Below are positions 5,708 through 63,988 of a stretch of 64,000 nucleotides of DNA, one piece after another (the first letter of the stretch is position 1; the number at the start of each line of letters is the position of its first letter). Source of the DNA: a virus. Its lineage: Duplodnaviria > Caudoviricetes. The DNA lies in IMG/VR virus record IMGVR_UViG_3300009610_000008, positions 918 through 64,917 of that record, one strand, 5' to 3'. Under the pieces are notes generated by a model. That model was not told the origin of the DNA. It was given only the letters and a program-made list of their open reading frames with translations, and made no database searches. The position numbers were made by a program, and so were the translations under genes.

Positions 5708-6940
5708 ATGGCAACCGAACAAGTAGCAGTAACCAAGACACCCAAGGCCCCGCCCGTGGCACCATCCAAGGGCAGCAAGGGTACCACGGTGGACCTCACC
5801 GCCACACCCCTGGTCATCACCTCAGCCCAACAGTTGGACGTCAAATCCATTGTCCTGGTTGACAACCCCGGCCGAATGGATGGCGATAACAAGTTGGAGA
5901 CCCTACGCCATGCCATTGAGCAGGCTGGCCAAGTCCTCAACCCCATCACTATTAGACCTACCACCGAAGATGATGGCGACCTCCACGCTGATGGCAAGTA
6001 TGCAGTGGTAGATGGCAGACGACGCTTTCGATGCGCCAAGTCCATTGGATTCAAAACTGTACCCGTTGTCTTGTGGAACCCCGGCAAGGGCAAGGAGCGT
6101 ATCACCAGTGTGCAGGGTGCGATACTTGCCAACCTCGCCAACCGCTCTCTCACTGCCCCTGAAATGTTAAATGCATTCCTGGCCCTGGCTGACGACATGG
6201 ACTGGGATGTCAAGGTCCCCAAGCTGGGCGAGAAGGGCATTGGGACATGTGGCAAGGACGTCGAGAAGTTGGCCCGTTACACTGAGACATCCAAGGCCAC
6301 CATCTACAGGACATTACGTCTCGGTCTACTGGACAAGGACATCCTCAAGAAGGTCCACAACAAAGAAGTTGGTGCCGACGCCGCCCGTGACATGGGTGGG
6401 CTGGTGCAAAATGGGTACCTCACCGAGGAGCAGGCAACGCTTGTCTTCGAGGAAGCCCTGGACATGAATGCCAAGAAGGCGAAGATCGACAATCGCCGTG
6501 ACCCCAACGCCCCAGACACCCGTACCCCCGATCAAATACGGCTCGACAACCTGGAACGTAAGCGTAAGAAACTCAAGCGCGCCGCCGCCGCCAAGGCCAA
6601 CGGGGGTGGTGGTGAGGTTGAGGAAGAGGAGGTCATCGCAGTGTCAAAGGCTGACCTCAAAGTTGCTGCCGCCAAGCTGGAGAAGGAGGGGAAGTTGACC
6701 ACCAAGGCCAGTGCTGCTGTCGCTGAGGCCAGTGCCAAGGGTGCGGGGATCTCGGCTGATGCCAAGCAGATGGCCATGCGATTGAAACATCTCGATGACG
6801 TATGTGAGGATCTCATTAACGATGAAAATCCCCACATCGCCAAGCTGGGTGCGGCTCTCACCAAGTTCATGGAAGGACAACTCCTTGCCCCCGAGTTGGT
6901 GAAACAATTCGAGAAGCACTGCCTCCCCGCCACTGAGTAG
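5708..6940 (+). CDS. parB: ParB/Spo0J/KorB-family protein (ParB N-domain + HTH + K/A/E-rich tail)
   Basis: NPGR, VLNPITIRP, YAVVDGRRRFRCAK..G.KTVPV (GxxR motif), NLANRSLTAPE, then HTH-like VEKLARYTETSKATIYRTLRL; AAGGAG SD. Confidence 0.88.
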   Translation: MATEQVAVTKTPKAPPVAPSKGSKGTTVDLTATPLVITSAQQLDVKSIVLVDNPGRMDGDNKLETLRHAIEQAGQVLNPITIRPTTEDDGDLHADGKYAVVDGRRRFRCAKSIGFKTVPVVLWNPGKGKERITSVQGAILANLANRSLTAPEMLNAFLALADDMDWDVKVPKLGEKGIGTCGKDVEKLARYTETSKATIYRTLRLGLLDKDILKKVHNKEVGADAARDMGGLVQNGYLTEEQATLVFEEALDMNAKKAKIDNRRDPNAPDTRTPDQIRLDNLERKRKKLKRAAAAKANGGGGEVEEEEVIAVSKADLKVAAAKLEKEGKLTTKASAAVAEASAKGAGISADAKQMAMRLKHLDDVCEDLINDENPHIAKLGAALTKFMEGQLLAPELVKQFEKHCLPATE

Positions 6941-8386: not shown

Positions 8387-9049
8387 ATGACAATCAATCG
8401 AGACGAAGTACCAACAGTGGCAGAGCAAGTGTCCTCGCTGGAGAATGGGTATGCTGACCTGCTGTTGGAGAACAAGGCTCTTGGTGAGTCGATCCAGTTA
8501 CTAACCAAGCAGGTGCATGAACTGGAGGATCAACAGGCGATCACGCGGCAGGCATACCAGAACCTACTGGCTGAGAAGGATGGCACTATCGCTGGGCTGG
8601 ACGCCATTGTCGCCGAGAAGAACGCAGAGATCAAAGCCTGTCATGAGACGATCAGGCACAGCAACGAGACGATCAAGGGATTAGACGCGGCACTGGCCCA
8701 GGCGCGGGAATGCAATGCTCGGCTCGACCACCAGTTGGAACAGCAGGGTCGCCGCACGGCCACCAGTGTACGCATCGAGGGGTGGGATAAGCAGGACAAC
8801 ATGGTGAGGGCGAACAGCAGTACCTGCGACTGTGACCACCCAGGCCCGTTCGACAGCAACAACCACTGCGTCAAGTGTGGGCGCAAGTACAACGCACCCA
8901 ACCCTGGCCTCAAGTTTGGCGAGATCCAATTGGCCAAGCGCATCTACCATAACATCCACTACCCGGCGATACGGGCATTGCTTGGGTACGAGACGTGCCG
9001 CATACTGGACATCGTGCTGGACCTGGACCAGCCGGGGGTTAGTGACTAA
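8387..9049 (+). CDS. Coiled-coil protein with Cys-rich (zinc-ribbon-like) segment
   Basis: Heptad-rich N-half, CDC...HCVKCG; AAGGAG SD; stop lies inside the palindrome at 9038. Confidence 0.7.
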   Translation: MTINRDEVPTVAEQVSSLENGYADLLLENKALGESIQLLTKQVHELEDQQAITRQAYQNLLAEKDGTIAGLDAIVAEKNAEIKACHETIRHSNETIKGLDAALAQARECNARLDHQLEQQGRRTATSVRIEGWDKQDNMVRANSSTCDCDHPGPFDSNNHCVKCGRKYNAPNPGLKFGEIQLAKRIYHNIHYPAIRALLGYETCRILDIVLDLDQPGVSD

Positions 9050-9051
9050 CC

Positions 9052-16969: not shown

Positions 16970-17419
16970 ATGGCAACCGCATTGTCAGTGGTTCGGCAAT
17001 TCTATCCCAATGTCAGGACCATAAGTGATGGGTCCAGGGACATTGAGATCAACGTAGGCGACAAGGATATAGCCAATGCCCAACGGCGCAAGCACCCCAC
17101 CTGTGCATTGGCAGTGGCCTGTAAACGTGAGTACCAAGTCAAGGGCATCATTGTCGCCCTAAGCGTGGCATACCTCATCACCAAGGATGACGAGGCCATA
17201 CGGTACATGGTCCCGCAAAGTGCTCGTAACGAGATCATCATCTACGACCGCAACGGCGAATTCGCCCCTGGTGTCTACCACTTCCTCAAACCAGACAGCC
17301 ACCACAAGCTGGGGGCGAGGGCACCACGGACTAACCCTAACAAGGGCAAAAATGGCAAGTCTAAGGGGCGGTACCGTCACCTGACCGAGAATGTGCGATC
17401 ATTGCACACCCCCAGTTAG
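16970..17419 (+). CDS. Hypothetical basic protein
   Basis: AGGAG SD; stop lies inside the palindrome at 17415. Confidence 0.7.
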   Translation: MATALSVVRQFYPNVRTISDGSRDIEINVGDKDIANAQRRKHPTCALAVACKREYQVKGIIVALSVAYLITKDDEAIRYMVPQSARNEIIIYDRNGEFAPGVYHFLKPDSHHKLGARAPRTNPNKGKNGKSKGRYRHLTENVRSLHTPS

Positions 17420-17443
17420 TGACTAACAAAGGAGTACAGAACT

Positions 17444-18144: not shown

Positions 18145-19614
18145 ATGGCAGTAGACTTTTGGCCGTATTTGACACGCGGTGTCGGTGGTAGGTGTAACCA
18201 GTGCATCTCCCGTCTCGACCACACCCAGGTGTCGCATGTCGTACCCCCATGTGGGCCAAGTGATGCTGAAGTAATATGCATTGGTGAGGCCCCCGGCGGA
18301 CAGGAACGTGATGAGCCATTCCAAGGCAATGCCGGGATGGAGTTGGACAACCACTACCTGCCACTGGCTAAGTTGGATCGCAGTGAGGTGTACATCACCA
18401 ACGTCTGTAAGTGCCGCCCACCGTCGAACCGCACCCCCAATGCCAGGGAGATCGACGCATGTAGCAGGCACTTCCTGGCACGGGAGTTGGACAGACTGTC
18501 ACCACGGCTTGTTGTACTGATGGGCGGTACAGCCAGTTCAATCATTGATGGCGACCCAATAGACCTGGAGAGTGATCATGGACGATTGTATAGAGGTACG
18601 ATACTGGGTCGGGGACCCTACGACATCTTCACCACATATCATCCGGCGCTGGGCCTCCACATCCCAGTACACATCGGCAACATCGAAGACGACTTTCGCA
18701 GTATCGAGTCGTTCCTCAGGGGGAGGTACACGGAGCCGGTTGACGAATGGGAAGGTGAGGAAGAGTATGTCTACTGGCATGAGTGGGGCAAGCAGCTATA
18801 TCCATCGCGCCCAGTATTCATAGACAGCGAGAGTGAGTATGGACAATTGTACTCATGGCAGTGTACACAGTTACCAGGCATGGGGGTGATGGCTAAGGAG
18901 TATGGGGCAACGTCGCATGAGATAGATGATATGAGACGGCACCTGCAACACATTGTCAATACATGTACCACACTGGTGATGCAGAACGCCATCGTGGAAG
19001 TGGCGGCCTTTCGACAGTTGGGTATCCACGTCGACTGGGCCAAGGTGATTGACACCATGCAGATTGCGTATCGCCGGGGGATGCCCCAAGGGTTGAAGCC
19101 ATTGGCACGTCGCCACTGTGGCATGAAGATGCAAAGTTACCTGGAGGTGACGAATAGAGCTAGTAAACGTAAAGTACAACAGTGGATTGTGGATGTTGTC
19201 GACCATCTCCCCGACTTAGTCACTAACCGCATTAGTGAGAAGACCGGCAAGTATCTCAAACCCAAACGTTCATCCAACCCAATGGTCGCGGTACTGGATG
19301 GGATGTTGCGATCCATGACCACCAATCCCAAATATGATCCGTGGAAACGCTGGAGGGAACATCGCGAGGAGTTACCCAGTGCCGCCACCCCAGCGGCGAT
19401 TGAGACGAAACGTAAGCAGTGGTATTGGCGGGAGTGGCTACTAGACCATGTTGGCAGTGATATGCCACAGCGGGGGTTACGTCACGTGGAGCCATCCATT
19501 GCCAAGTGGTATGCGGTACGTGACGCCGATGCCACCTGCCGGGTGTACTATACGATTGGCAAAGACCTGGATAGTCTATGGAAAGTGAGAGAGTATGACT
19601 GGAACAACCGATAG
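18145..19614 (+). CDS. Family-4 uracil-DNA glycosylase fused to a PolA-type 3'-5' exonuclease (N-terminal half of a split DNA polymerase)
   Basis: UDG: IGEAPG, PFQGNAG, YITNVCKCRPP, TYHPA. Exonuclease: FIDSE (ExoI), QNA..E (ExoII), DTM, GLKPLA, YAVRDADAT (ExoIII). Confidence 0.88.
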   Translation: MAVDFWPYLTRGVGGRCNQCISRLDHTQVSHVVPPCGPSDAEVICIGEAPGGQERDEPFQGNAGMELDNHYLPLAKLDRSEVYITNVCKCRPPSNRTPNAREIDACSRHFLARELDRLSPRLVVLMGGTASSIIDGDPIDLESDHGRLYRGTILGRGPYDIFTTYHPALGLHIPVHIGNIEDDFRSIESFLRGRYTEPVDEWEGEEEYVYWHEWGKQLYPSRPVFIDSESEYGQLYSWQCTQLPGMGVMAKEYGATSHEIDDMRRHLQHIVNTCTTLVMQNAIVEVAAFRQLGIHVDWAKVIDTMQIAYRRGMPQGLKPLARRHCGMKMQSYLEVTNRASKRKVQQWIVDVVDHLPDLVTNRISEKTGKYLKPKRSSNPMVAVLDGMLRSMTTNPKYDPWKRWREHREELPSAATPAAIETKRKQWYWREWLLDHVGSDMPQRGLRHVEPSIAKWYAVRDADATCRVYYTIGKDLDSLWKVREYDWNNR

Positions 19615-21625: not shown

Positions 21626-21820
21626 ATGCCCATTAAGCGATTCATGCTGTTCGCCTACGACGCCTTCTACCCCAGCGGCGGGTGGAGTGACTTCCGTGGG
21701 TCATTCAATACTCTCGACGAGGCTGTCGCCGCCTGGGTGGCACTACACCGGGAACGCCTGCTCGACTACTACCAGATTGTTGACCTGCACACTGGTGAGG
21801 AGATTGAGGTTAGGGGTTAG
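21626..21820 (+). CDS. Small phage protein
   Basis: GAGG SD; KRFMLFAYD.FYPSGGW.DF..SF pattern. Confidence 0.65.
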   Translation: MPIKRFMLFAYDAFYPSGGWSDFRGSFNTLDEAVAAWVALHRERLLDYYQIVDLHTGEEIEVRG

Positions 21821-21828
21821 TGACTAAC

Positions 21829-23346
21829 ATGTACATCCCATCACGAGTACGACACCCGTCGTTCACCAACACCCAGGCCCTCGACCGCTTGCCCATGCCC
21901 ACCATCGAGGACATGATGAACCTCGGCGTGGCCATCGACGTCCCCTACCTTGCCACCCTCGCCGAGGAAATGCGTGATATGATGGAGACACTCTCTGCCA
22001 AGGTTAGACGACGGGTTCCGGCTGACAAGCTGGCTGAGTTTCTCGGCGCTGATGATGACACCGTTGACGCCGAGAATAGTGGGGAGGTGACCTCCTGGTC
22101 ACAGGTGGGGCAACCAGAGTCATTCCTGGGACGCTTTAAAATCACCTCCCCCGAACAGATCGCCTGGTTTTTATTTGACAACCTGGGCATTGGCAAGGGA
22201 CGACAGTTAGTCACTACCCCAGATGGCAGTAGGATAAGCACTGGTAAAAAGCAGTTAGAGGCACTCAAGTCTGAGCATGAAGCGATCCAGGAGATTCTTG
22301 CGTTTAGGGAAGTACACAAACTCTACACCACCTACGTCGTCAAACTCCCCCGCATTGCCCGACACCATCCTAAGGGCCGCCATTGCCCTGTATGTGGTCA
22401 TACTCATCGTGAGCCTAGTGATCGAGTACATTCGACAATAGTAGCCACCAGGACCGACACTGGTCGCTTGGCAGGACGACGGCCCAACCTCATGAACATC
22501 GCTGTACGCAGTCCACTAGGCGCGAGGGTACGTGCGGGATTCATCCCCAGCCATGGCATGTCCCTGGTCAGCGCAGACTACAGCCAGATTGAACTACGTA
22601 TCCTCGCCAGTGAGAGTGCCGACCCGTTCATGATGAGGTGTTTCCTCGATGGCCGCGACATACACGCGGAGTCCACCCTGGAAGCGATGGGCATTCGTGA
22701 CAAGGTAGGGTTTGATCCCAAGTCCAAGGCGATCTATCCACTCACCCCCGGTGCCGCCATCCCCACCATTCAGGAGTTCATGACAATGAGGGCAGGGATG
22801 AAGAACGCCAACTTTGGCATAGTCTATGGGATTACGTGGATGGGACTCCAGGCTCAACTTGTACTGATAGGTATCTATTGGAGTAAGGAACAGACAATCG
22901 CCTTTATCGAGGAGACATGGCACAAGGTGTTCATGTCCATCCGGCCCTATATGCGTGAGCAGGAGTATCGGGCCAGGAAGTATGGGTTCGTCTGGGACCT
23001 GATGGGAAGTATCCGGTACATCCACGGCATACGCAGTGCTGTCAAACGAGTCGTCGCCGAGAGTGTCCGCCAAGCTGGTAACATGCCCATCCAAAGTGCC
23101 GGTTCCGCTTTCCTCAAGATCGCCATGTGGACGTTACGTGGAGTGTACGACAAGTTTAGGGCGGCGGGATATGAGGTGAACTTTCTTATGCCGGTTCATG
23201 ACGAGATTGTAAGTGAATGTGACACAGCCATCGCTGAGGAACTCAAGGTTGCCACTGTCAAGTGTATGGCGGATGTCAACCAGTACACCCAACTGCTGGT
23301 ACCAGTCATGGCTGAGGGCAAGGTAACCAGTAGATGGACCAAGTGA
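21829..23346 (+). CDS. polA: DNA polymerase family A, polymerase domain only
   Basis: TGRL, PNLMNI, motif A ADYSQIELRILA, motif B RAGMKNANFGIVYG, NMPIQ, motif C VHDEI. Start ATG 21829 or GTG 21820. Confidence 0.95.
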   Translation: MYIPSRVRHPSFTNTQALDRLPMPTIEDMMNLGVAIDVPYLATLAEEMRDMMETLSAKVRRRVPADKLAEFLGADDDTVDAENSGEVTSWSQVGQPESFLGRFKITSPEQIAWFLFDNLGIGKGRQLVTTPDGSRISTGKKQLEALKSEHEAIQEILAFREVHKLYTTYVVKLPRIARHHPKGRHCPVCGHTHREPSDRVHSTIVATRTDTGRLAGRRPNLMNIAVRSPLGARVRAGFIPSHGMSLVSADYSQIELRILASESADPFMMRCFLDGRDIHAESTLEAMGIRDKVGFDPKSKAIYPLTPGAAIPTIQEFMTMRAGMKNANFGIVYGITWMGLQAQLVLIGIYWSKEQTIAFIEETWHKVFMSIRPYMREQEYRARKYGFVWDLMGSIRYIHGIRSAVKRVVAESVRQAGNMPIQSAGSAFLKIAMWTLRGVYDKFRAAGYEVNFLMPVHDEIVSECDTAIAEELKVATVKCMADVNQYTQLLVPVMAEGKVTSRWTK

Positions 23347-23507: not shown

Positions 23508-24206
23508 CTACACTACTCGACGGCGTTTTGCAAGGTAAATTCCAACCAGCCCAACCCCCATGAGTGCATACGTCCCCGGCTCGGGCACCTCCGGTTCACA
23601 GTTCTCGGTGCAGAACGGGTCAATCCCCGGCCCCACGTAGAACTGGTCAATGAGTGAGATACTCGCATACCCCAGCCCATCGGTGTCACTGCCCACCAGG
23701 AAGATATCCTTGGTGATCTTGAGGAAATGGTAGGCGTTGTCGAGGAGGATCGCATCGGCGAGGGGTCCGCTGGGTGCATCGACCTGCCCTTGCCCCGCAA
23801 CGTGGAGAAACGGCGTAATGGCAATGACGGTCTCGACGACCTGGGCAAACGACGAGTCACCGACGACTGCCCCATTAAACAACAACCCCACTGCCCCAAT
23901 CGCCGGCACCGACAGCAGGTCATAGCCTACCAGGAAGTCGGCAGTGGCAAACCCACCACCCGGATTAAGTGCGGTGAACCCACCGGCAAAGTGGAGTTGA
24001 TTGCCCACCAGCGTGACATCAATGCCACTCGCATCAAGTGGCGCACACACGCCGGTCCCGCCGCAGGTGCGGATGAACGTGAAGTTATCGACGGTGATGT
24101 TGGCATTCGACAAGCTACCCCCGGCCACCAGGGTGGACAATAGCGTCGCCCCCAGGTTGAGACTGGACAAGGCCAGTATCGCGGACACAAGCACAAAGCG
24201 TTTCAT
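23508..24206 (-). CDS. PEP-CTERM sorting-domain surface protein
   Basis: Signal peptide MKRFVLVSAILALSSLNLGA; C-terminal VPEPGTYALMGVGLVGIYLAKRRR. Confidence 0.92.
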   Translation of the reverse strand: MKRFVLVSAILALSSLNLGATLLSTLVAGGSLSNANITVDNFTFIRTCGGTGVCAPLDASGIDVTLVGNQLHFAGGFTALNPGGGFATADFLVGYDLLSVPAIGAVGLLFNGAVVGDSSFAQVVETVIAITPFLHVAGQGQVDAPSGPLADAILLDNAYHFLKITKDIFLVGSDTDGLGYASISLIDQFYVGPGIDPFCTENCEPEVPEPGTYALMGVGLVGIYLAKRRRVV

Positions 24207-24340
24207 ACAGTAACTACATTTCCCTTCTAGATTGCCGCCGGTCCTGGAAACCGAACGTTCATGGGCCTCCAGGCAGACAGCTGATATAGTGTACCACAAC
24301 GTATCAAAATGGTGAGAGTGAGTCACTAACTGGGGTCCAC

Positions 24341-36511: not shown

Positions 36512-36551
36512 GTGGTCCTCTGTTAGTGACTAACAATTGTACCGCCATTGC

Positions 36552-49654: not shown

Positions 49655-49673
49655 GTGGTCTCCTTGTTAGTGA

Positions 49674-51485
49674 CTAACTCGCCAGACGGGATGTTGCAAA
49701 GTGTTCGGTTGTGGTAAAGCGGGCCGAGGCCATCATCTCGGTGTAGAATATGTTACCACTCAGTAGATATCTACAGTTGTCCAGCATGTGGGTGCGGAAT
49801 TGAGACACCCGCTGGGTGAGGTCCTTAGATGGGGATGACGACGTCTCGGCGTAGCGATGATTACGGAACTCGGCGCGCAGCTCAAGTAGGGATTCGGCAA
49901 TAAATAGCCTGGGCCTAACAGTATGACGCCAGGGCTTGGGTTCCAATAGTTCGTCGATCTTGTCATTACCAACCGCATGTGACTTGCGCGGGTCCTGGCA
50001 GTAGATGCCATATTTGCGGTACTCGTCATAGATAAATAAATCTGGCGTCCCTTCCCCTGATATGCGAAACCCCTTGCCGGCCTGGTCCATAAGACGCGAT
50101 ACGATGCGTTCACCACCATCCCGGTGAGTGTAGGTGTACATTTCGTATGGGGTGCCGACGTGTTGACCCACAATTTCGTTGCCTTCTAGAAATGCTAGAT
50201 ACTCGGCGTAGGTGCGGACAGTGTAACGGTTACATTCATCTTCATCTCGGAGCCGTCGTCCAGTGCCGTAAACGTTACTGGGCCAGGATTCCCGATAAAA
50301 GTAGAAGTCATAATCTCTAGTAACCAACATCCATAGGGAGGCATGCTCAGTGCGTGGATGAGGATCAATGGACATGTATAGACAACCGTATTCGGGGATG
50401 GCGGTGTCTTTGATGACGTGGATTTGCTCATTGTATTTTGGGTGGACGAGTGCTCCACCTAATGCCTCGGCCTCAATCTCCATCTCACGTCTCCACATGG
50501 GTGAGCCACGCCCACCGAAGACCTTGGAGACACGTTTGAGTTTGGCCTCGTCGCGCATGGAGGGGTCACAGGAGTAGTGGACACGCAGGAATACCCAGCC
50601 TTGGGGAGAGAGATGTTTGGTTAGGCCGGGGATTGGCCCGGTGACTTCACCACCAAGCGATGGGGTTGGGACGAGTAGGCCACTGAGTCCAACCTTAGAT
50701 AGATCACTGCGGTCGAAGAGATGGGCATAGTTGTAGTCGTCCTGGTGTAGTAATTGATTGTACGACCATGGTACTTGGCGGCACTCTTTCCATACCTCGT
50801 TGAGTGGGCCGGGTTTGGCGGTGGCGATGAGCCAGATGTAGGGGGTTTTGGCGGCCAGGGCATTGGTGACACACTCCAATAGCTCATCCTCTAGGGATGC
50901 CTCGTCAAAAATATATACTGTACCGTGCTCGAAACGTATCTTGTCACTACCACTGGCGAAGGCGGCAGCACTACTGCCATTGGGGAGATTGCATTCCGCG
51001 TATGACTGGCTGTAGAGGTCAAGGGTCAGGTCGCCCAGCCAGTGTTTGCGTAGACGGTCCGTGGAGTTCATGAACAACACCTTGATCTTCTCGATGATCT
51101 TGGCGGCACGGGGTTGGTCGGCACTTTGGACGACTACACGGGTGTCGGGTTGGGTGGCCATCATATGGGCGGCGAGACCGGCGGCGGTCCAGGACATCAT
51201 GAGGGTGCGGGACTTGTAGGCGGCATGGATGATGGACTCGCCACGTGGGGGTCTAACCATGAGGTCGTCGGCGATGTAGTCAAAATAGGGGGAGAGTGGG
51301 AAACCTTTACGACTGTTGGAGTCCTGTTCGTCGACGGTTTTGGTGCCATTGCGTAGCCAATACATGGCCGATTTGGCACTATTGTCCAATGACTCGCGGT
51401 AGATGAGTTCATCGGTTAACTCGGCAATGCTGGTGGCTAGCCGTACGTTGTCGAGCGCCGGGAGTGGGATGAAGGTGTCGGCCAT
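49674..51485 (-). CDS. terL: Terminase large subunit
   Basis: KSRTLMMSW (Walker A variant), YIFDEA, ATAKPG, WRREMEIE, nuclease SIDPH, HMLDNCRY. Confidence 0.92.
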   Translation of the reverse strand: MADTFIPLPALDNVRLATSIAELTDELIYRESLDNSAKSAMYWLRNGTKTVDEQDSNSRKGFPLSPYFDYIADDLMVRPPRGESIIHAAYKSRTLMMSWTAAGLAAHMMATQPDTRVVVQSADQPRAAKIIEKIKVLFMNSTDRLRKHWLGDLTLDLYSQSYAECNLPNGSSAAAFASGSDKIRFEHGTVYIFDEASLEDELLECVTNALAAKTPYIWLIATAKPGPLNEVWKECRQVPWSYNQLLHQDDYNYAHLFDRSDLSKVGLSGLLVPTPSLGGEVTGPIPGLTKHLSPQGWVFLRVHYSCDPSMRDEAKLKRVSKVFGGRGSPMWRREMEIEAEALGGALVHPKYNEQIHVIKDTAIPEYGCLYMSIDPHPRTEHASLWMLVTRDYDFYFYRESWPSNVYGTGRRLRDEDECNRYTVRTYAEYLAFLEGNEIVGQHVGTPYEMYTYTHRDGGERIVSRLMDQAGKGFRISGEGTPDLFIYDEYRKYGIYCQDPRKSHAVGNDKIDELLEPKPWRHTVRPRLFIAESLLELRAEFRNHRYAETSSSPSKDLTQRVSQFRTHMLDNCRYLLSGNIFYTEMMASARFTTTEHFATSRLAS

Positions 51486-57865: not shown

Positions 57866-58202
57866 TGCGGGTCACCCCCAGCGAGATATTTAATTTACAG
57901 GTTCTGGCGATGGCGGCAAGGGTGGTGATGGTAGGGAGACGGCCACGCAGGTAGATGTTGCGGATGGTTTGTTCATTCACACCACTACGCTTGGCGAGGG
58001 TCGCTATCGAGCGGTTCGGCACGGTGTCGAGACAGGTATTGATGAATTGCTTTATGTCGTCGCGCAGCAAGCCAGTGTGTGGAGATCCAGGCGCGGTAGT
58101 GCGGCGTGGTGATGGTTTCGTTGGTGGTCTCACTGGTGGTGGTGATGGTGATGGGTGGTTGTGGGTACGCAGTGGTGGGGGTGCGAGGGGTGTTAGTTTC
58201 AT
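57858..58202 (-). CDS. XRE-family HTH regulator
   Basis: AAGGAG SD; SIATLAKRSGVNEQTIRNIYLRGRLPTITTLAAIARTC. Confidence 0.75.
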   Translation of the reverse strand: MKLTPLAPPPLRTHNHPSPSPPPVRPPTKPSPRRTTAPGSPHTGLLRDDIKQFINTCLDTVPNRSIATLAKRSGVNEQTIRNIYLRGRLPTITTLAAIARTCKLNISLGVTRNG

Positions 58203-58920
58203 ATCCAAATATCTCCTTATAGAGTGAATCAATCTGCGGCTGGACGCCAGCGAGTTCTACTGATAGGGTGCGGTGGGCACGAATGGTGGCTGGGAGTGAT
58301 AGTCCATATACCTCTGGCCATTTGGTGGCGAGACTCATGGCAAACGCGGGTGACATGATGGTGCCATCCATGTTGAGGAATAGATAACTACTCGCACGTC
58401 GTCGGCCCTGGCCACGTTTTAAGTTGTAACGACGGGTAGCGACGAGCTTGTCAATGTAACTCCACGCCCACTGGGTGTAACACCCCAATCGTTTGTAGAG
58501 GTCGCGTATTTCCTCCAGGCGGCCGATGTTTAGGGTCGATGCGTCGGCGGGACGGATGCCCAAACCAAGGGCAAACATGAACAGGGCGTTGCGCCGAATA
58601 GTGGAATATCTCATCCGCCGGTCGATCCCGGACAGGGCATGTTCGAGACGGGCACGGGATAGAGATGAGAGTTGGGGTGTGGTTGGGGAACGGGAGAAGG
58701 ACCATAAGTCGGCAAATTGCTCGGGAGTAACTAACCCGCGACTTTTGAGCCATAATGCCAACTTCCTCACCACTTGCCGTAGGGCGCGTTGATCATCGTG
58801 GGGTAGTGTGGTGGACCCGGTGGCTAGATTTGTTGCGTTGTAGGTACCGCCAAGGTCCAGCAATGCCCTAACCCCATGATGGTGGGGGGTGAGGCCGATG
58901 ATGTCGGGGTCAATTGTCAT
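57985..58920 (-). CDS. Degenerate tyrosine recombinase/integrase-like protein
   Basis: RRNALFMFALGLGIRPADASTLNI (box I-like), YLFLNMDG, PATIRAH in place of HxLRH; the box II H/Y is not evident. Confidence 0.55.
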   Translation of the reverse strand: MTIDPDIIGLTPHHHGVRALLDLGGTYNATNLATGSTTLPHDDQRALRQVVRKLALWLKSRGLVTPEQFADLWSFSRSPTTPQLSSLSRARLEHALSGIDRRMRYSTIRRNALFMFALGLGIRPADASTLNIGRLEEIRDLYKRLGCYTQWAWSYIDKLVATRRYNLKRGQGRRRASSYLFLNMDGTIMSPAFAMSLATKWPEVYGLSLPATIRAHRTLSVELAGVQPQIDSLYKEIFGYETNTPRTPTTAYPQPPITITTTSETTNETITTPHYRAWISTHWLAARRHKAIHQYLSRHRAEPLDSDPRQA

Positions 58921-59205
58921 TTTGTCAAAACCGGAAAAACACAGTACTGTGTGTCTTATATTTCTTCAAAGTATATACTGTGTATTACTGGATTTGAGAC
59001 GATGTATATGAAAACATTGGGGTTAGGTGCGATTTTGAAATGTTTTGAATTGGGGCAAATGGACGGTTTGGGCCGACGTTGGCGCAGGACGTAAAAATGA
59101 CCATTCCGTGTAGGGGAGTACGTGGGATGGTGGAAAATGGTCGTCCTGGGTCAATTGTGTGGGTTTTCGCCATATATTCGCCCCTTGTTAGTCACTAACC
59201 GCCCG

Positions 59206-59454
59206 TTAGTCACTAACTTTCGACATAATTTCCCGTATTTGCGCCATAATCTGGTCCGGGGTCAGCATCCGCGCCCTCGATTTTGCCACTAATGTACGAA
59301 TTTGCTGTATTGCCCACAACTTCTGGTCCACTTTTGGCCGTTTCCCCAACTTATTGTAGTCAACGTTCATCCAGATGCCATATTTTGGCTCTGGTGTCGG
59401 GTTCACTGTCACCTCGTAGCCTGCAATCCACGGTTTCAGCGGTATTTTTGCCAT
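59206..59454 (-). CDS. Small hypothetical protein
   Basis: 82-aa ORF whose stop lies inside the palindrome at 59205. Confidence 0.55.
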   Translation of the reverse strand: MAKIPLKPWIAGYEVTVNPTPEPKYGIWMNVDYNKLGKRPKVDQKLWAIQQIRTLVAKSRARMLTPDQIMAQIREIMSKVSD

Positions 59455-60195
59455 GTTTCCATTATACCATATTTAATTATGGTGGCAAACGTTTGAAAAT
59501 TGGTCTCGTTCAGAATCCCGTATGGGACCCAGTGGCCCCGCCCCCTGGCCACGTCGGGGTGGTGGTGGTCACCCCATGTGAGGGTATCGCCGTGTCCCGT
59601 ATGGGGGTATCGACAGGCAGTACGTACCAAGAAACGGCCGATGTCAACGTCGTCCACATTAGAGAATGCGATTTTGTGGCGTCCTTTATATAAGGTTTGC
59701 CCCCATTATTGCCCAATTGTCGAAATAGCCTAGGATCATCCGGTAGACATTGGCACGTACCTTGGGACGGTGGCAGAATCAGCCGCGCTAAATTGATCCT
59801 AGGCGCAATGACGGCATATGTGGACGTTGTCAACTTTCGAGCATTTTTGACCGCGCTATATAAAGGTTGCGCTGGCCGCACTGGCCGCTAATCGTTAGTC
59901 ACTAACCTATAGCTATCGCTTATGGGGTATCGCTGGCCGCTATGACACTGTCTATAGGATGTTGCGCTACCACATGCGAAATGATCAATTAAGTACCCCC
60001 CGCTACAACATATTGTCTTCATTACACTTGCCAGTACCGCCTATTGGACGTCGATGTTGACACTGTCCACAATAATACTTTATTTGCCTTGTTATCATAC
60101 ACTTACGATGGGTACTGAATTATTTGTTTTACATCTCTAAAAAATTATGGTTAGATAGTTATGTCAGTTCGATGTTTGATAGCTTAACGGTTCGA

Positions 60196-60894
60196 TGGCG
60201 CGGGGGGACGCAAGTCCCGCGTAAGGCGCGATTGAGACCGCGGGAAACGGTCCCGCGTTAGGCTAATTTGGCTGATAGATCTTTGACATATTCGACGTAT
60301 CAAGCGAGAATCCAAACGGGCGTTAGCTAGGTAACCTAGCCATAGTCAATACGCAACCATGTGGGAGTAAGGCGGACGGTAGTCAATCCGTTGTCGGTCT
60401 AGTTAGGTCTCGTAGGCCACCTTGTAGGGCGGTACGTTTAGGAGCGACTGCGGAAAACGTCACGTGAACTGTCGAGACGATAGTTTAGAGACGCGACGGT
60501 CGCAAAGGTTAAATGACATAAGCTAGTCGACGATACGTGTGTCCGAAACTCTAGCTGGTAGGCGTGGAATTAGTATATCTCCCATCCATAGCCCTAGCAA
60601 TGACGGCGCGGCATACGTTGTCCCTAACAATTCCAGCGTATTGGTATGACCACTGGTAGGCGCGTCGATGCTTGAGCGAACGGTCAGTGGTAAAACGATT
60701 TAGTGGCCTAGGGTGCGTCCGCCGATACACCCATGGTTTCACAACATAGACAATACCGCCTGACGGTTAGTCACTAACGAACAGAACGCGATAACTCCGC
60801 GAGAGTTGCGTCCCTGCGACGGTGGCTAGGCATGTCGGGCGGTACGGCTATGGCGATATAGATGCTATAAGTGTATCTGTACCGCCATAGCCGT
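60196..60894 (+). ncRNA. Candidate large structured non-coding RNA or structured early leader
   Basis: No credible ORF; nested long-range stems and GNRA hairpins (see findings); boxA-like GATCTTTGACA at 60278-60288. Confidence 0.6.
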
Positions 60895-60934
60895 CCTGGT
60901 ATACAGGGAATGCGCTATTGGAGAATCAATCACA

Positions 60935-61363
60935 ATGGCTATCAATTTCGTTCAGAAGACCAATGGCTCCGCCAAGGTTGCGACAGTACCGTCAGCAGTC
61001 CCGCCGATGGACATCTCGGCTCTCATCGCTGCTGCCGTGGCCGACGCCATGGCCAAGGTAATGGCACCGTCCCACGTGGCCGCACCCAAAGCCCAAGCTG
61101 TCGATCCGGCCATGGTTGCCGAGATTGCACGCCTGAAGGCTGAGAATGCCAAACTTGCCGCAGCCAAGCCCGTCGCCAAGGTCAAGCGCCCATTGGTTTT
61201 CAAGGTCTCGGAGAAACGCGCCATGTCCATCTACAACCTGGGCGCTCGGTTTCCCGTCACGCTGTACAAAGAGCAGATGTTGGCCTTACTCGATGCCGAG
61301 AAGGACATCCGCGCCTTCCTCAAAGACAACGACGCCCTACTAGCCAACAAGGGCGATAACTAG
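60935..61363 (+). CDS. Early protein, Ala-rich N-half with conserved-looking C-domain
   Basis: GGAGAA SD; FKVSEKRAMSIYNLGARFPVTLYKEQ segment. Confidence 0.8.
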   Translation: MAINFVQKTNGSAKVATVPSAVPPMDISALIAAAVADAMAKVMAPSHVAAPKAQAVDPAMVAEIARLKAENAKLAAAKPVAKVKRPLVFKVSEKRAMSIYNLGARFPVTLYKEQMLALLDAEKDIRAFLKDNDALLANKGDN

Positions 61364-61491
61364 TACCATCTAGCGGCCTGGGGTAGAGCCGGAATCTACC
61401 CTCACGATTAGGCCATACACGGGAGAACTGTGTGTGGCCTAACCGTGTTTTGGATGACTAGTCCATCACGGTAGTAGGAGAACCAATCACC

Positions 61492-61656
61492 ATGTCCATG
61501 TTCCAAGTCATGTTCACGCCCGTCAAGGGTGTCGCTGTCCTAGCCACGACTCCGCTAGGTGCCCGTCGCAAGGCGGAACGCATCTACTACCGCGAAGGCA
61601 AGGCTATCAGTGTCGATCCTATCCCGCAGGATAGCGATTGGACCAACGAGGACTAA
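61492..61656 (+). CDS. Small early protein (54 aa)
   Basis: Read manually; AGGAGAACCAATCACC-ATG. Confidence 0.6.
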   Translation: MSMFQVMFTPVKGVAVLATTPLGARRKAERIYYREGKAISVDPIPQDSDWTNED

Positions 61657-61749
61657 GCTAGCTACACCGCCGACAGGCCCACCAATCACACGGCCTGTCG
61701 GCGTCATAGTTCGCTTGACCTAACGAGTGAACACAGGAGAACTGTATCT

Positions 61750-62010
61750 ATGAAACTACTCGTGTCCCTTATCCTGGCTGCTGGCCTGTGCCTTGCCGAG
61801 CCTGTCTACTTCACCAAATCTGGCAAGAAGTTCCACAAGGCCACCAAGTGTGGGCAGATGACGCCCGACAAGGCCATGACGGCTGATCGCACAGAGGCTA
61901 CGTCACATGGCCTGTCCCAGTGTGGGCGCTGCTACCGTGTCACGACAGGTAAGTCCAGTGGCAGCGACAAATCGTGGGCCAAGCCAGTAACGCCCACACC
62001 CGCCAAGTAG
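61750..62010 (+). CDS. Small secreted protein with putative zinc-binding domain
   Basis: Signal peptide MKLLVSLILAAGLCLA; VYFTKSGKKFH...C...GLSQCGRC. Confidence 0.75.
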   Translation: MKLLVSLILAAGLCLAEPVYFTKSGKKFHKATKCGQMTPDKAMTADRTEATSHGLSQCGRCYRVTTGKSSGSDKSWAKPVTPTPAK

Positions 62011-62111
62011 GCGGACAGCTAGTAGGCAGGGCGAATGCGACAATCGTATCGCCCTGGCCCGTTAGCTGGGTTAACCCCAGTGATATCAACAACTTAGGAG
62101 AGAACCAATCC

Positions 62112-62399
62112 ATGCGATACTTCAACTCGCTCATCCGGGCCATGGCCTACGCGACAGTCGCCACCTATGCCTTGTACACAGTAGGCGACATGCATACCAA
62201 GCATCTCGCGGTCGAACTGGCCGACATCCAGGCCAAGGCCGACCAAGTACGGTACGACAGTGAGTTTGCCGTGACCCTCGGTGGCTGCGCAACCGACACC
62301 GAGTGTGCCATGGCGGAAGCCGCTGCTGTCAAGGCTGTGGCTAAAGAGCGTAGCCTGGGTAGCAACGGTGGTGGCGGACGGCTAATGGCTGGACGATAG
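62112..62399 (+). CDS. Small membrane-anchored early protein
   Basis: AGGAGAACCAATCC-ATG; N-terminal hydrophobic segment. Confidence 0.65.
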   Translation: MRYFNSLIRAMAYATVATYALYTVGDMHTKHLAVELADIQAKADQVRYDSEFAVTLGGCATDTECAMAEAAAVKAVAKERSLGSNGGGGRLMAGR

Positions 62400-62488
62400 A
62401 CTGCTAGGATTCACGGTCAATGCCTTACCGGGTAGTGACCGTGTCCCTTAGTTGGCTGACGTCAACGACATGCAAGGAGAACTAGACT

Positions 62489-62971
62489 ATGACAATGCAA
62501 CAGGCCGCTCAACAGGCCATCGACATACAGGACGCCTGTAACCTGTCGGGTGTGGTGTACAGTTTCGCTCGGGTAATGGACACGCTCTGTGCCAACACCA
62601 CGGCCACCCGTGACAGGAATAGCCATCCCATCGTGACGATGTTTCTGCTCAAGCTGTGTGAACTCAATGGCTGCGGCAGTACCCTGCACGAGACCTATGA
62701 GGCGGCAGAGAAGGCGTGCCATGAACTGGCGCAGTCAACTGGGGATGGGCATCACCACTACGAGGTTGTAGTGAGCAACATTGGCCACGTCTACAACGGC
62801 ATGGACCAGGGGATAGCCGAGACCAAGTACGACAGCTATGTCAAGCTCAGTGCCGCCGGGTATGGCATCACTGGGTACGAGCATGTAACCATGCTGCGGG
62901 ATGGCGACGTGGCCAAGGACTACGACGGCGGGGAACAGCGGTTGATAGACATCGAGAGCCGCATGGAGTAG
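62489..62971 (+). CDS. Hypothetical early protein
   Basis: AAGGAGAAC SD. Confidence 0.7.
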   Translation: MTMQQAAQQAIDIQDACNLSGVVYSFARVMDTLCANTTATRDRNSHPIVTMFLLKLCELNGCGSTLHETYEAAEKACHELAQSTGDGHHHYEVVVSNIGHVYNGMDQGIAETKYDSYVKLSAAGYGITGYEHVTMLRDGDVAKDYDGGEQRLIDIESRME

Positions 62972-63071
62972 CGTAGCGCAGACAACTAGACAGCGCATGG
63001 GTAGTGACAGTATCCATGCTCTGGCGTAGCTGCCTGGGATACAGGGACAGTGACAAGGGAGAACTAAACAC

Positions 63072-63323
63072 ATGGATTACGGTGATTGGGAAGACGCGAT
63101 CAGGGATCTGGATGACCCGCAACTGGCGGATGTCATCAAGGCAATAGCCACACTGCGGGACTGGCCTGTCTTCTATCAGGAGTTCAAGGGACTAGGCACA
63201 TTCGGCTTGCAGGTACCGCTACTCTACGAGGCGGAACGCAGGCGTCGCGCGGAGATGCCATTGGGTAGCCCCAAGCGGTACTTCGACTCGCAGTTCATGG
63301 AGTTCCGCGACGTGACCAGCTAG
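63072..63323 (+). CDS. Hypothetical early protein
   Basis: GGGAGAAC SD. Confidence 0.65.
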   Translation: MDYGDWEDAIRDLDDPQLADVIKAIATLRDWPVFYQEFKGLGTFGLQVPLLYEAERRRRAEMPLGSPKRYFDSQFMEFRDVTS

Positions 63324-63401
63324 TCTACAGCCAACAGGGTGCATGAGTTAGTGACTAACAACCACTGGATCATGTACCCGATTGGAAGGAGAACTAGACA
63401 T

Positions 63402-63836
63402 ATGCGAACAGACGCGACAATCGACAGGCAGCAGGTGCTATGCCGCAATGCCGACCGGACAGGCTATGGCAAATTCACTGCCCAGGTGGGCGACATCCTG
63501 TGGTGGCGGATAAACGGCGAGGGCAACACCAGTGTGGGACGGGTGGTTGGCCGCATCGCCTATGCCCCAGCCCTGGATGGTGACCGTGAGCCAATCAAGA
63601 GCTACATCCTGGTAGGCAAACTGTCGTCTGACATGACCTACGTGAGTGAGGCATGGGTTAACCCGGCGGATGTATGGAAGGTCGAGGAGCCGCGCCACCA
63701 GTTGGACACCATGAAGTGGTTCTTCTCCAACACCATTGTCGAGCAGGACATTAGCATGGTGCGGCGGTGCCTGTCGGAACTGTGGTCCACGTGGGATGCG
63801 TTCATGGTGTACCTGATTGGCAAGGGTAAGGTATAG
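63402..63836 (+). CDS. Hypothetical early protein
   Basis: AAGGAGAAC SD before ATG 63402. Confidence 0.7.
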   Translation: MRTDATIDRQQVLCRNADRTGYGKFTAQVGDILWWRINGEGNTSVGRVVGRIAYAPALDGDREPIKSYILVGKLSSDMTYVSEAWVNPADVWKVEEPRHQLDTMKWFFSNTIVEQDISMVRRCLSELWSTWDAFMVYLIGKGKV

Positions 63837-63853
63837 TAAACAAAGGAGTTACG

Positions 63854-63988
63854 ATGAAGCACAAGACATGGGGACACGTGATATATCTCAGGCTGCACCG
63901 GGTACTCTGTGCCTTGTGCTGCCACCCTACCTTCACTGACCAGTGGGGTGGGCAGGAGTGTGGTTGTGGCAAGATCAGCCACGACTAG
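63854..63988 (+). CDS. Small Cys-rich hypothetical protein (44 aa)
   Basis: Read manually; AAGGAG SD. Confidence 0.45.
   Translation: MKHKTWGHVIYLRLHRVLCALCCHPTFTDQWGGQECGCGKISHD

Follow-up and report, generated by a model that had tools for sequence, protein, structure and literature searches.

The 64-kb window analyzed here comprises bases 918-64917 of a 64,917-bp virus record (G000) with terminal repeats, which comes from an uncultured, metagenomic phage. A first-pass annotation of this window had placed a candidate novel, large structured noncoding RNA at 60196-60830, at the head of the early region. Comparative analysis supports a noncoding, conserved and structured RNA without an Rfam match that heads the early (rightward) operon. 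A real, conserved and probably transcribed structured RNA is present, with an extent and an architecture unlike those first described; the original observation is partly confirmed and its interpretation partly supported. From the onset of conservation at a promoter-like site, the lack of a terminator before the first open reading frame (ORF1) and the direct junction with the ORF1 ribosome-binding site, we infer that the element is the 5' leader, about 0.6 kb long and on the + strand (~60318-60912), of the early transcript. Comparison among relatives shows the leader as a row of local hairpin domains (P1, P2, P5, P8, a 95-nucleotide (nt) 3' domain and two terminal hairpins) around an invariant core. 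That a structured leader exists is very probable, and the reading of it as a cis-acting structured leader, taken as a whole, is given a probability of about 0.55.

Relatives were collected with an ORF1 protein scan, in which 24 candidate stretches led to three confirmed loci, and with DNA pattern scans from conserved blocks, which added more. The core is held by 16 stretches, including the window and the window's own record (L001), and several of these are the same contig twice. They collapse to seven distinct 780-nt stretches and then to five distinct leaders: the window, L002, L003 (identical to L020 and L026), L019 (identical to L015, L018 and L021) and L022. Pairwise identity among the five leaders is 47-76%, and in all five lineages the element ends directly upstream of the start of the same ORF, ORF1. 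Compared with the window, L002 is 85.5% identical in the leader and 79.1% in ORF1, and L003 is 76.5% identical in the leader and 76.7% in ORF1. Judged by sequence identity, the leader is conserved about as well as ORF1, or better. Alignment with L003 shows similarity from the -35 hexamer of the promoter-like site onward, and the preceding 830 nt are not conserved. L003 retains this hexamer in the alignment, and L002 nearly does. The clade so far consists of uncultured phages of sediment, groundwater and soil metagenomes, according to the organism labels of the runs, four of which had their contigs placed on the window. Other stretches were dropped after checking as chance matches: two of four from one pattern scan (L006 and L008), six of eight from one (L009-L014) and two of seven from one (L016 and L017). 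A core scan of genome contigs gave 0 matches.

The element lies within a 1.5-kb gap free of ORFs (59454-60935) that separates two divergent operons, one leftward with structural genes and one rightward with replication genes. The parts of the leader and the features that follow it are:

60283-60311, + strand: promoter-like site, TTGACA, 17 nt, GAGAAT, 10 of 12 matches
60318-60412, + strand: variable 5' segment, which holds the 5' arms of long-range helices 1 and 2 and a hairpin at 60326-60340
60411-60436, + strand: hairpin P1, CGTA.GCC, 9-nt loop ACCTTGTAG, GGC..TACG
60444-60503, + strand: domain P2, inner hairpin at 60467-60485, helix CGTC/GACG, outer helix GCGACTG/CGGTCGC
60554-60598, + strand: hairpin P5, outer stem of 4-7 bp, small internal loop, inner stem of 7-9 bp, large loop
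60622-60662, + strand: invariant core of 41 nt, CCCTAACAAKTCCAGCGT, 5-7 variable nt, TGACCACTGGTAGGCG
60703-60742, + strand: hairpin P8, outer stem GTG-GCC/GGT-CAC, 2x2 internal loop, inner stem GGGTG/CACCC
60752-60846, + strand: 3' domain, a long closing stem enclosing nested helices
60844-60894, + strand: long hairpin, stem of 19-22 bp in all five lineages, end 41 nt ahead of the ATG
60895-60907, + strand: short hairpin CCTG-GTATA-CAGG, paired in all lineages, with U-A changed to A-U in L019
60920-60923, + strand: ribosome-binding site GGAG before ORF1
60935-61363, + strand: ORF1, ATG at 60935, 142 amino acids, following the element in five of five lineages
61408-61442, + strand: 15-bp hairpin after ORF1 with a weak U-tract

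The element does not code for protein. The statement that the region holds no credible ORF was correct, the longest being 36 amino acids on the + strand and 63 on the - strand, and coding is ruled out by insertions and deletions of 1, 4 and 40 nt relative to the relatives, which are not multiples of three. None of 4227 Rfam 15 models, a set that covers GOLLD, ROOL, riboswitches, ribozymes, tmRNA, RNase P and introns, reached its gathering threshold in the window or in L002, L003, L019 and L022. At E ≤10, the segment 59400-61000 gave four sub-threshold matches, the best with 19 bits against a threshold of 90. At the level of families that match at threshold, the earlier impression that this is no known transfer RNA (tRNA), transfer-messenger RNA (tmRNA), ribonuclease (RNase) P or intron type is retained. 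ARAGORN found 0 tRNA or tmRNA genes on the 64-kb window.

The best-supported domains lie at 60752-60907, partly past the end of the originally annotated region at 60830. The structured RNA is in the region first assigned to it, as part of a larger element that extends further 3' than 60196-60830. The first-pass annotation had named covariation in homologs as a check, and compensated pairs do rise above controls in the 3' domain and in the terminal hairpins. For the 3' domain, a 96-position covariance model was built from four lineages using the structure of the window's fold, and this model, which was built without L022, recovered the L022 domain where it should lie (20.2 bits, E = 0.084). In the resulting alignment 94.6% of 166 cells are paired and 14 of 35 pairs are compensated, and 0 of 500 shuffles reach any of five measures. 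Sliding the partner by 1-3 columns as a control drops pairing to 28-36%. The domain contains one copy of a 13-nt palindrome (60766-60778), the 5' half of which pairs with 60821-60829.

The terminal hairpins (60844-60907) have 97.2% of cells paired and 6 of 22 pairs compensated in a plain MAFFT alignment, and 0 of 500 shuffles equal them in four of five measures. The long hairpin has 21, 22, 20, 19 and 19 bp in the five lineages, so its sequence changes while its length is held; 11 outer pairs are kept in all five lineages and three of these are compensated. A candidate switch that would pair GGCGGTAC (60838-60845) with GTACCGCC (60879-60886) was rejected, since it is not kept in L019 and L022. 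The five leaders folded singly give the same topologies over 60736-60941. Relative to dinucleotide shuffles, the folding energy has z = -7.61 for 60745-60912 and z = -4.49 for 60318-60912. The comparison of energy with shuffles that had been suggested as a check is favorable for the 3' part and for the whole leader; for the originally noted core it is not, with z = -1.53 on the + strand.

The upstream domains are conserved less uniformly. The variable segment 60318-60412 is largely unlike L002 and carries an 11-nt direct repeat (60343-60353 and 60380-60390). Two hairpins were thought to flank the core. The second, GCTAGG-TAA-CCTAGC (60326-60340), is the first hairpin of the leader and is missing from L003. 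The other, GGGAC-GCAA-GTCCC (60205-60217), precedes the promoter-like site and is not conserved in relatives. P1 has compensatory changes in both of its stems (A-U to C-G and C-G to U-A) within the window, L002 and L003, the trio that can be aligned, and in the same three sequences 7 of the 29 predicted pairs of the P1/P2 region (60402-60514) show compensatory changes. P5 and P8 keep the same topology in five of five lineages when folded alone, with z = -2.05, -2.60, -2.77, -1.68 and -2.67 for P5 and z = -1.83, -2.20, -3.19, -2.85 and -3.53 for P8. An anti-Shine-Dalgarno role for the P5 loop was discarded on the ground that L019 and L022 do not keep the complementary run. The core between P5 and P8 is identical in all five lineages apart from one K position and the variable stretch of 5-7 nt. 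It is unique in the window, with no second copy or antisense match at ≤3 mismatches, and its first part is predicted to be paired.

The two counted alignments together hold 235 Watson-Crick, 28 G.U, 3 A.C and 9 other cells. The segment 60745-60912 folds with z = -7.61 on the + strand versus -5.04 on the - strand, where the energy is 16 kcal/mol worse. The excess of G.U over A.C and the better fold of the + strand point to a + strand RNA that is co-directional with the early genes. Contigs from three metatranscriptome runs lie on 60335-60594, 60357-60507, 60364-60514 and 60498-60648 with no differing letter, and are a suggestive sign of transcription. A further contig (run X22, 276 nt) matches the core at 60621-60662 after 235 nt that are unlike the window, which assigns it to another lineage, and 30 loose letters compared by eye differ from L022. 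This contig may be a sixth lineage, and if so, it would suggest that leaders of relatives occur in RNA libraries as well. The rest of 58000-63900 had no RNA contig, and a DNA run covered 29 of 30 bins there; missing cover is no evidence, and nothing was concluded from it on relative abundance or on a 3' end near 60660.

In the architecture first proposed, three long-range helices, nested in one another, close a multi-domain core of 385 nt. All of the complementary segments listed for it are present, the numbered coordinates are correct, and the exact pairs were checked. The helices that had been given without positions are located as follows:

60444-60450 and 60497-60503: GCGACTG/CGGTCGC
60458-60461 and 60490-60493: CGTC/GACG
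60467-60474 and 60478-60485: AACTGTCG/CGATAGTT
60521-60526 and 60551-60556: AGCTAG/CTAGCT
60565-60571 and 60629-60635: TGGAATT/AATTCCA

Chance was assessed with 2000 dinucleotide shuffles of 60340-60750. Six perfect stems of at least 7 bp are ordinary (matched by 418 shuffles), a mutually compatible set of 37 bp in five stems is unusual (matched by 27), and three nested long-range stems are rare (matched by 3). The folding energy of the segment is ordinary on both strands (z = -1.53 on the + strand and -0.41 on the - strand). Conservation was counted on the alignable trio, in the order window, L002 and L003. Helix 1 (60355-60361/60732-60738) keeps 7/7, 2/7 and 2/7 pairs, helix 2 (60371-60378/60716-60723) keeps 8/8, 0/8 and 3/8, and helix 3 (60413-60420/60703-60710) keeps 8/8, 8/8 and 6/8. 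The 5' arms of helices 1 and 2 are absent or non-complementary in relatives, and the proposed closure by the three long-range helices is not supported. The enclosed helices fared unevenly. CGTC/GACG (4/4 throughout), AACTGTCG/CGATAGTT (8/8 throughout, with an outer A-U changed to G-C) and AGCTAG/CTAGCT (6, 6 and 5 of 6) are kept; TGGAATT/AATTCCA (7, 4 and 5 of 7) and ACCACTG/CAGTGGT (7, 7 and 3 of 7) are not. GCGACTG/CGGTCGC has 7, 4 and 6 of 7 pairs.

The arms of the long-range helices are also parts of local hairpins. P8 contains the 3' arms of all three. Those of helices 1 and 3 pair with each other there (GTGGCC 60703-60708 with GGT..CAC 60735-60742), and that of helix 2 is the P8 loop. 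The 5' arm of helix 3 lies within P1, where GCC/GGC becomes GTC/GAC in L002. L003 has three changes in the helix 3 arms, each of which is matched in the local partner in P1 or P8 and not by the opposite arm; in P8, GTG/CAC becomes GCG/CGC and GCC/GGT becomes GTC/GAT, both compensated locally and mismatched in helix 3. Because the arm changes are compensated locally, the conserved structure is local. From the sequence comparison, long-range closure would be at most a feature of the window's single lineage.

Four other accounts of the element were weighed against a cis-acting leader of local domains. Long-range closure is improbable as the conserved architecture, even though the complements are exact, three nested stems are so rare in shuffles, and helices 1 and 2 appear in both the minimum-energy and the centroid folds of the window sequence. 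Helix 2 could coexist with P8 as a pseudoknot in the window lineage, its 3' arm being the P8 loop. Set against these points, helices 1 and 2 are mostly lost in L002 and L003 (helix 3 having 8/8 and 6/8 pairs), the three L003 changes in helix 3 are all compensated by P1 and P8 partners, the core alone has an ordinary energy, and the five full-length leader folds share no closing helix. A stronger competitor, which we consider possible and clearly less favored than cis action, is a stand-alone, stable RNA that acts in trans in host takeover, as a decoy or as a scaffold, and only by chance is made from the early promoter, with the core as its active or binding center and a purpose other than ORF1 expression. 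In the most novel form of this idea, a free, stable RNA of 0.3-0.6 kb would be cut from the ORF1 message and accumulate, and the core would be either a high-affinity target of a host factor in transcription or translation or a pocket for catalysis or ligand binding. The invariance of 41 nt across lineages that are otherwise 47-53% identical fits this idea, as do the RNA-library contigs on the 5' half of the leader and a two-turn hairpin that could release the RNA; large phage-associated RNAs of unknown function do exist (GOLLD and ROOL; PMC12286853). It is harder to reconcile with the missing terminator between the RNA and ORF1, the junction with the ORF1 ribosome-binding site in five of five lineages, the lack of an antisense target of the core within the window, and domains that resemble separate hairpins, not an ornate fold. 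If such a free stable RNA were made, it would count as a new class of large phage RNA and as the first product that the phage makes for host takeover.

An antitermination leader of the nut type is unlikely, although the order of promoter, long leader, two-turn hairpin, small ORF and terminator-like hairpin is that of pL-nutL-N-tL1 in lambda. The start of the core (pyrimidines, then AACAA) would be a boxA-like site for host Nus factors, with a presumed likeness to rrn boxA; ORF1 would encode the first, N-like protein, and transcription would read through a terminator formed by the hairpin behind ORF1. This scheme conflicts with an ORF1 that has no arginine-rich N terminus, with the predicted pairing of the first part of the core, and with a U-tract after ORF1 that is weak and is absent in L003. 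No hairpin of the boxB type was identified. Least probable of all is a DNA-level control region, made up of operators or a replication origin. Its location in the gap between divergent operons and its single copy of the 13-nt palindrome found at gene boundaries throughout the genome would suit such a region, and the same palindrome forms paired sites in five actinobacterial genomes, in at least three of them beside genes of apparent TetR-family proteins. Yet G.U cells outnumber A.C cells 28 to 3, the + strand folds better than the - strand, compensatory changes join arms up to 90 nt apart, RNA-library contigs fall on the element, and the palindrome is present as a single copy and not as an iteron-like array. 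A pairing of the 5' region with the core, of the kind found in P4, was also tried and set aside: it is no better than shuffles in four of five lineages (z = -0.23, -2.17, +0.74, +0.80 and +0.66).

In the favored reading, that of a cis-acting structured leader, the leader would be the first product that host RNA polymerase makes after infection, starting from the promoter-like site (60283-60311), and it would act in cis on early-gene expression. The mechanism judged most likely is put forward tentatively. The two-turn hairpin at 60844-60894, 41 nt before the ATG, would be cut by a double-strand-specific RNase of the RNase III type. Cleavage is proposed because a length of 19-22 bp is held and the hairpin stands before the first early gene, as in the lambda and T7 leaders, and a site of the RNase III type is suggested by this length and position. 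The cut would free a stable, folded leader RNA from a trimmed ORF1 message and would set the translation level of ORF1 and the lifetime of its message. The invariant core would be a protein-binding site, and its partner may be a host factor or ORF1 itself.

Several points weigh against the favored reading. There are just five lineages, and two of them (the window and L002) are close. The promoter scan found 0 sites in L002, L003 and L019, and the -10 hexamer is not kept. The column counts for P5 are weak, with 80.3% pairing reached by 27 of 500 shuffles and the compensated pairs by 213 of 500 in a sequence-only alignment, and those for P8 are similar, with 74.5% pairing reached by 19 of 500 shuffles and the compensated pairs by 258 of 500 with MAFFT. 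These counts are weak because the register shifts between lineages. The core does not vary, so pairing within it offers no test. In the 3' domain, L022 was placed in the alignment by the structure model, a procedure that favors pairing. The RNA-library contigs carry neither strand nor ends, an RNA library can contain DNA, and the three RNA runs, all from sediment, share year and library type and possibly belong to one campaign. A separate RNA species is conjectural, with no terminator before ORF1, and cleavage at the hairpin is a prediction.

ORF1 had no sequence matches in Pfam, PHROG or the PDB, and matched only unnamed clusters in the protein atlas. Its C-terminal 80 residues, with a coiled coil, three strands and helices, fall into a family that has no Pfam entry and numbers at least 294 members, most of them free-standing proteins of ~80 amino acids on bacterial contigs. 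L004 was rejected as a relative: it shares only the C-terminal domain of ORF1 and lacks both the element and the palindrome. The AlphaFold2 model of ORF1 has a predicted local distance difference test score (pLDDT) of 67.7, and Foldseek with this model gave nothing at E ≤0.001. The best VIA-align match is the PC4 DNA-binding domain, with Z = 4.6 and a root-mean-square deviation of 3.1 over 49 aligned residues, which is below the meaningful level, followed by Sub1, Pur-alpha and bacterial PC4 homologues with Z = 2.9-3.9. The weak resemblance of the predicted model to a PC4-type binder of single-stranded nucleic acid is a lead only. No terminator was found between the leader and ORF1 in the window. 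The hairpin after ORF1 also occurs in L019 (4502-4536) and L003 (~6450-6510). A ACGGGAGA-type loop is conserved in the window and L003, and the U-tract is absent in L003. This hairpin would serve as a terminator or else as a second site of processing.

The window has 54 copies of the 13-nt palindrome, GTTAGTSACTAAC, at ≤2 mismatches versus 0.9 expected. Examples are at 1364-1376, 9038-9050, 17415-17427, 36522-36534, 49666-49678, 59187-59217 and 60766-60778. The copies are mostly intergenic, 0-26 nt before start codons, and often include the stop codon of the preceding gene. Some genes have the palindrome in place of a Shine-Dalgarno sequence. It is frequent in the relatives as well and may serve a dimeric regulator as an operator-like site, or act as a signal in RNA. 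Pairs of the palindrome 4-20 nt apart are present in L027-L031, which are GC-rich actinobacterial genomes, and in at least three of these five a pair lies just upstream of genes whose products start like TetR-family proteins, as read by eye. By analogy with these sites the palindrome shows the form of a typical repressor operator. None of the 77 window ORFs scanned encodes a TetR-family protein, and since the phage has none, the actinobacterial likeness is probably convergence.

The genes on the + strand run from 60935 through the record end to ~23346; among their products are a split family-A DNA polymerase, a ParB-like protein and helicases. Those on the - strand run from 59454 down to 23508, and their products include an SU10-type major capsid protein and tail-fibre-like proteins. 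A nucleotide search of 59400-61400 against 50,697 phage records gave 0 matches, and the DNA polymerase is ≤33% identical to anything in these records, so the phage has no cultured relative among them and no host assignment. The polymerase is divided between an ORF with a uracil-DNA-glycosylase-like domain and a 3'-5' exonuclease (18145-19614) and an ORF with the polymerase domain (21820-23346), which lies 2.2 kb downstream of the exonuclease ORF with small ORFs in between. A 272-amino acid protein on the - strand (23508-24326) has a PEP-CTERM sorting motif at its end (E = 2.9e-7), which hints at a host with an exosortase system. Upstream of the leader, the ~830-nt spacer 59454-60283 is free of ORFs and is not conserved in L003. 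It contains a 15-nt repeat in three copies (59865-59940) and one copy of the palindrome (59894-59906). A good leftward promoter-like site with a TG element and 11 of 12 matches is at 59488-59461. Immediately upstream of the rightward promoter-like site, 60196-60263 holds two GC-rich hairpins with a 14-nt direct repeat (60214-60227 and 60250-60263); relatives have different hairpins in the place of this pair.

To our knowledge, very few bacterial or phage noncoding RNAs longer than ~400 nt have conserved structure, and most of these taught new biology. Structured phage leaders and noncoding RNAs are a known kind of element, and this one is classed as a new RNA family among them. It would occupy the position where a phage gains most, that of the first RNA made after DNA entry, and the invariance of the core suggests a specific partner. 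As no more than a processed leader, the element would be a clear new case, beyond the model phages, in which RNA structure and cleavage by an RNase control early genes; with a role in trans, it would give the phage a new RNA tool to take over its host. In both cases, the analysis provides a defined 600-nt construct, five natural variants and a seed alignment for a new RNA family.

Among known systems, riboswitches and other cis-regulatory leaders resemble the element in having a conserved core among variable helices, located between a promoter and an ORF. Unlike riboswitches, it has no match to a known aptamer, no terminator or clear sequestering helix that would serve as an expression platform, and alternative pairings that are not conserved. 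RNA immunity leaders are found in P4, where the CI RNA acts with seqA and seqC, and in P1 and P7, with c4. The element shares with them an early-operon leader with short direct repeats (here 60343-60353 and 60380-60390) and differs in that complementarity between its 5' region and core is no better than in shuffles in four of five lineages. GOLLD and ROOL are found in the neighborhood of tRNA genes in phages or prophages, whereas the window holds 0 tRNA genes. Both are Rfam families of large, ornate, phage-associated RNAs of unknown function (PMC12286853). Like them, the element is several hundred nt long, phage-associated and found by comparative analysis. Unlike them, it has no Rfam match, is a leader fused to an ORF, is confined to a narrow phage clade and gives no sign of an ornate multi-junction fold.

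The closest comparison is with the early leaders of lambda and T7. The lambda N leader is arranged as pL, nutL, an RNase III hairpin and N, and the T7 early leader has an RNase III site before gene 0.3. The leader described here exceeds them two- to threefold in length, contains seven or more conserved hairpin domains and carries the invariant 41-nt core. It has no sequence similarity to these leaders, no boxB and no N-like arginine-rich protein, and its cleavage is predicted. In common with them, it is a long untranslated leader behind an early promoter that would be read by the host polymerase. A long hairpin precedes the ribosome-binding site of the first small early gene, and a further hairpin follows that gene. 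RNase III sites have stems of ~20 bp or more, about two turns, and the long hairpin has stems of 19-22 bp.

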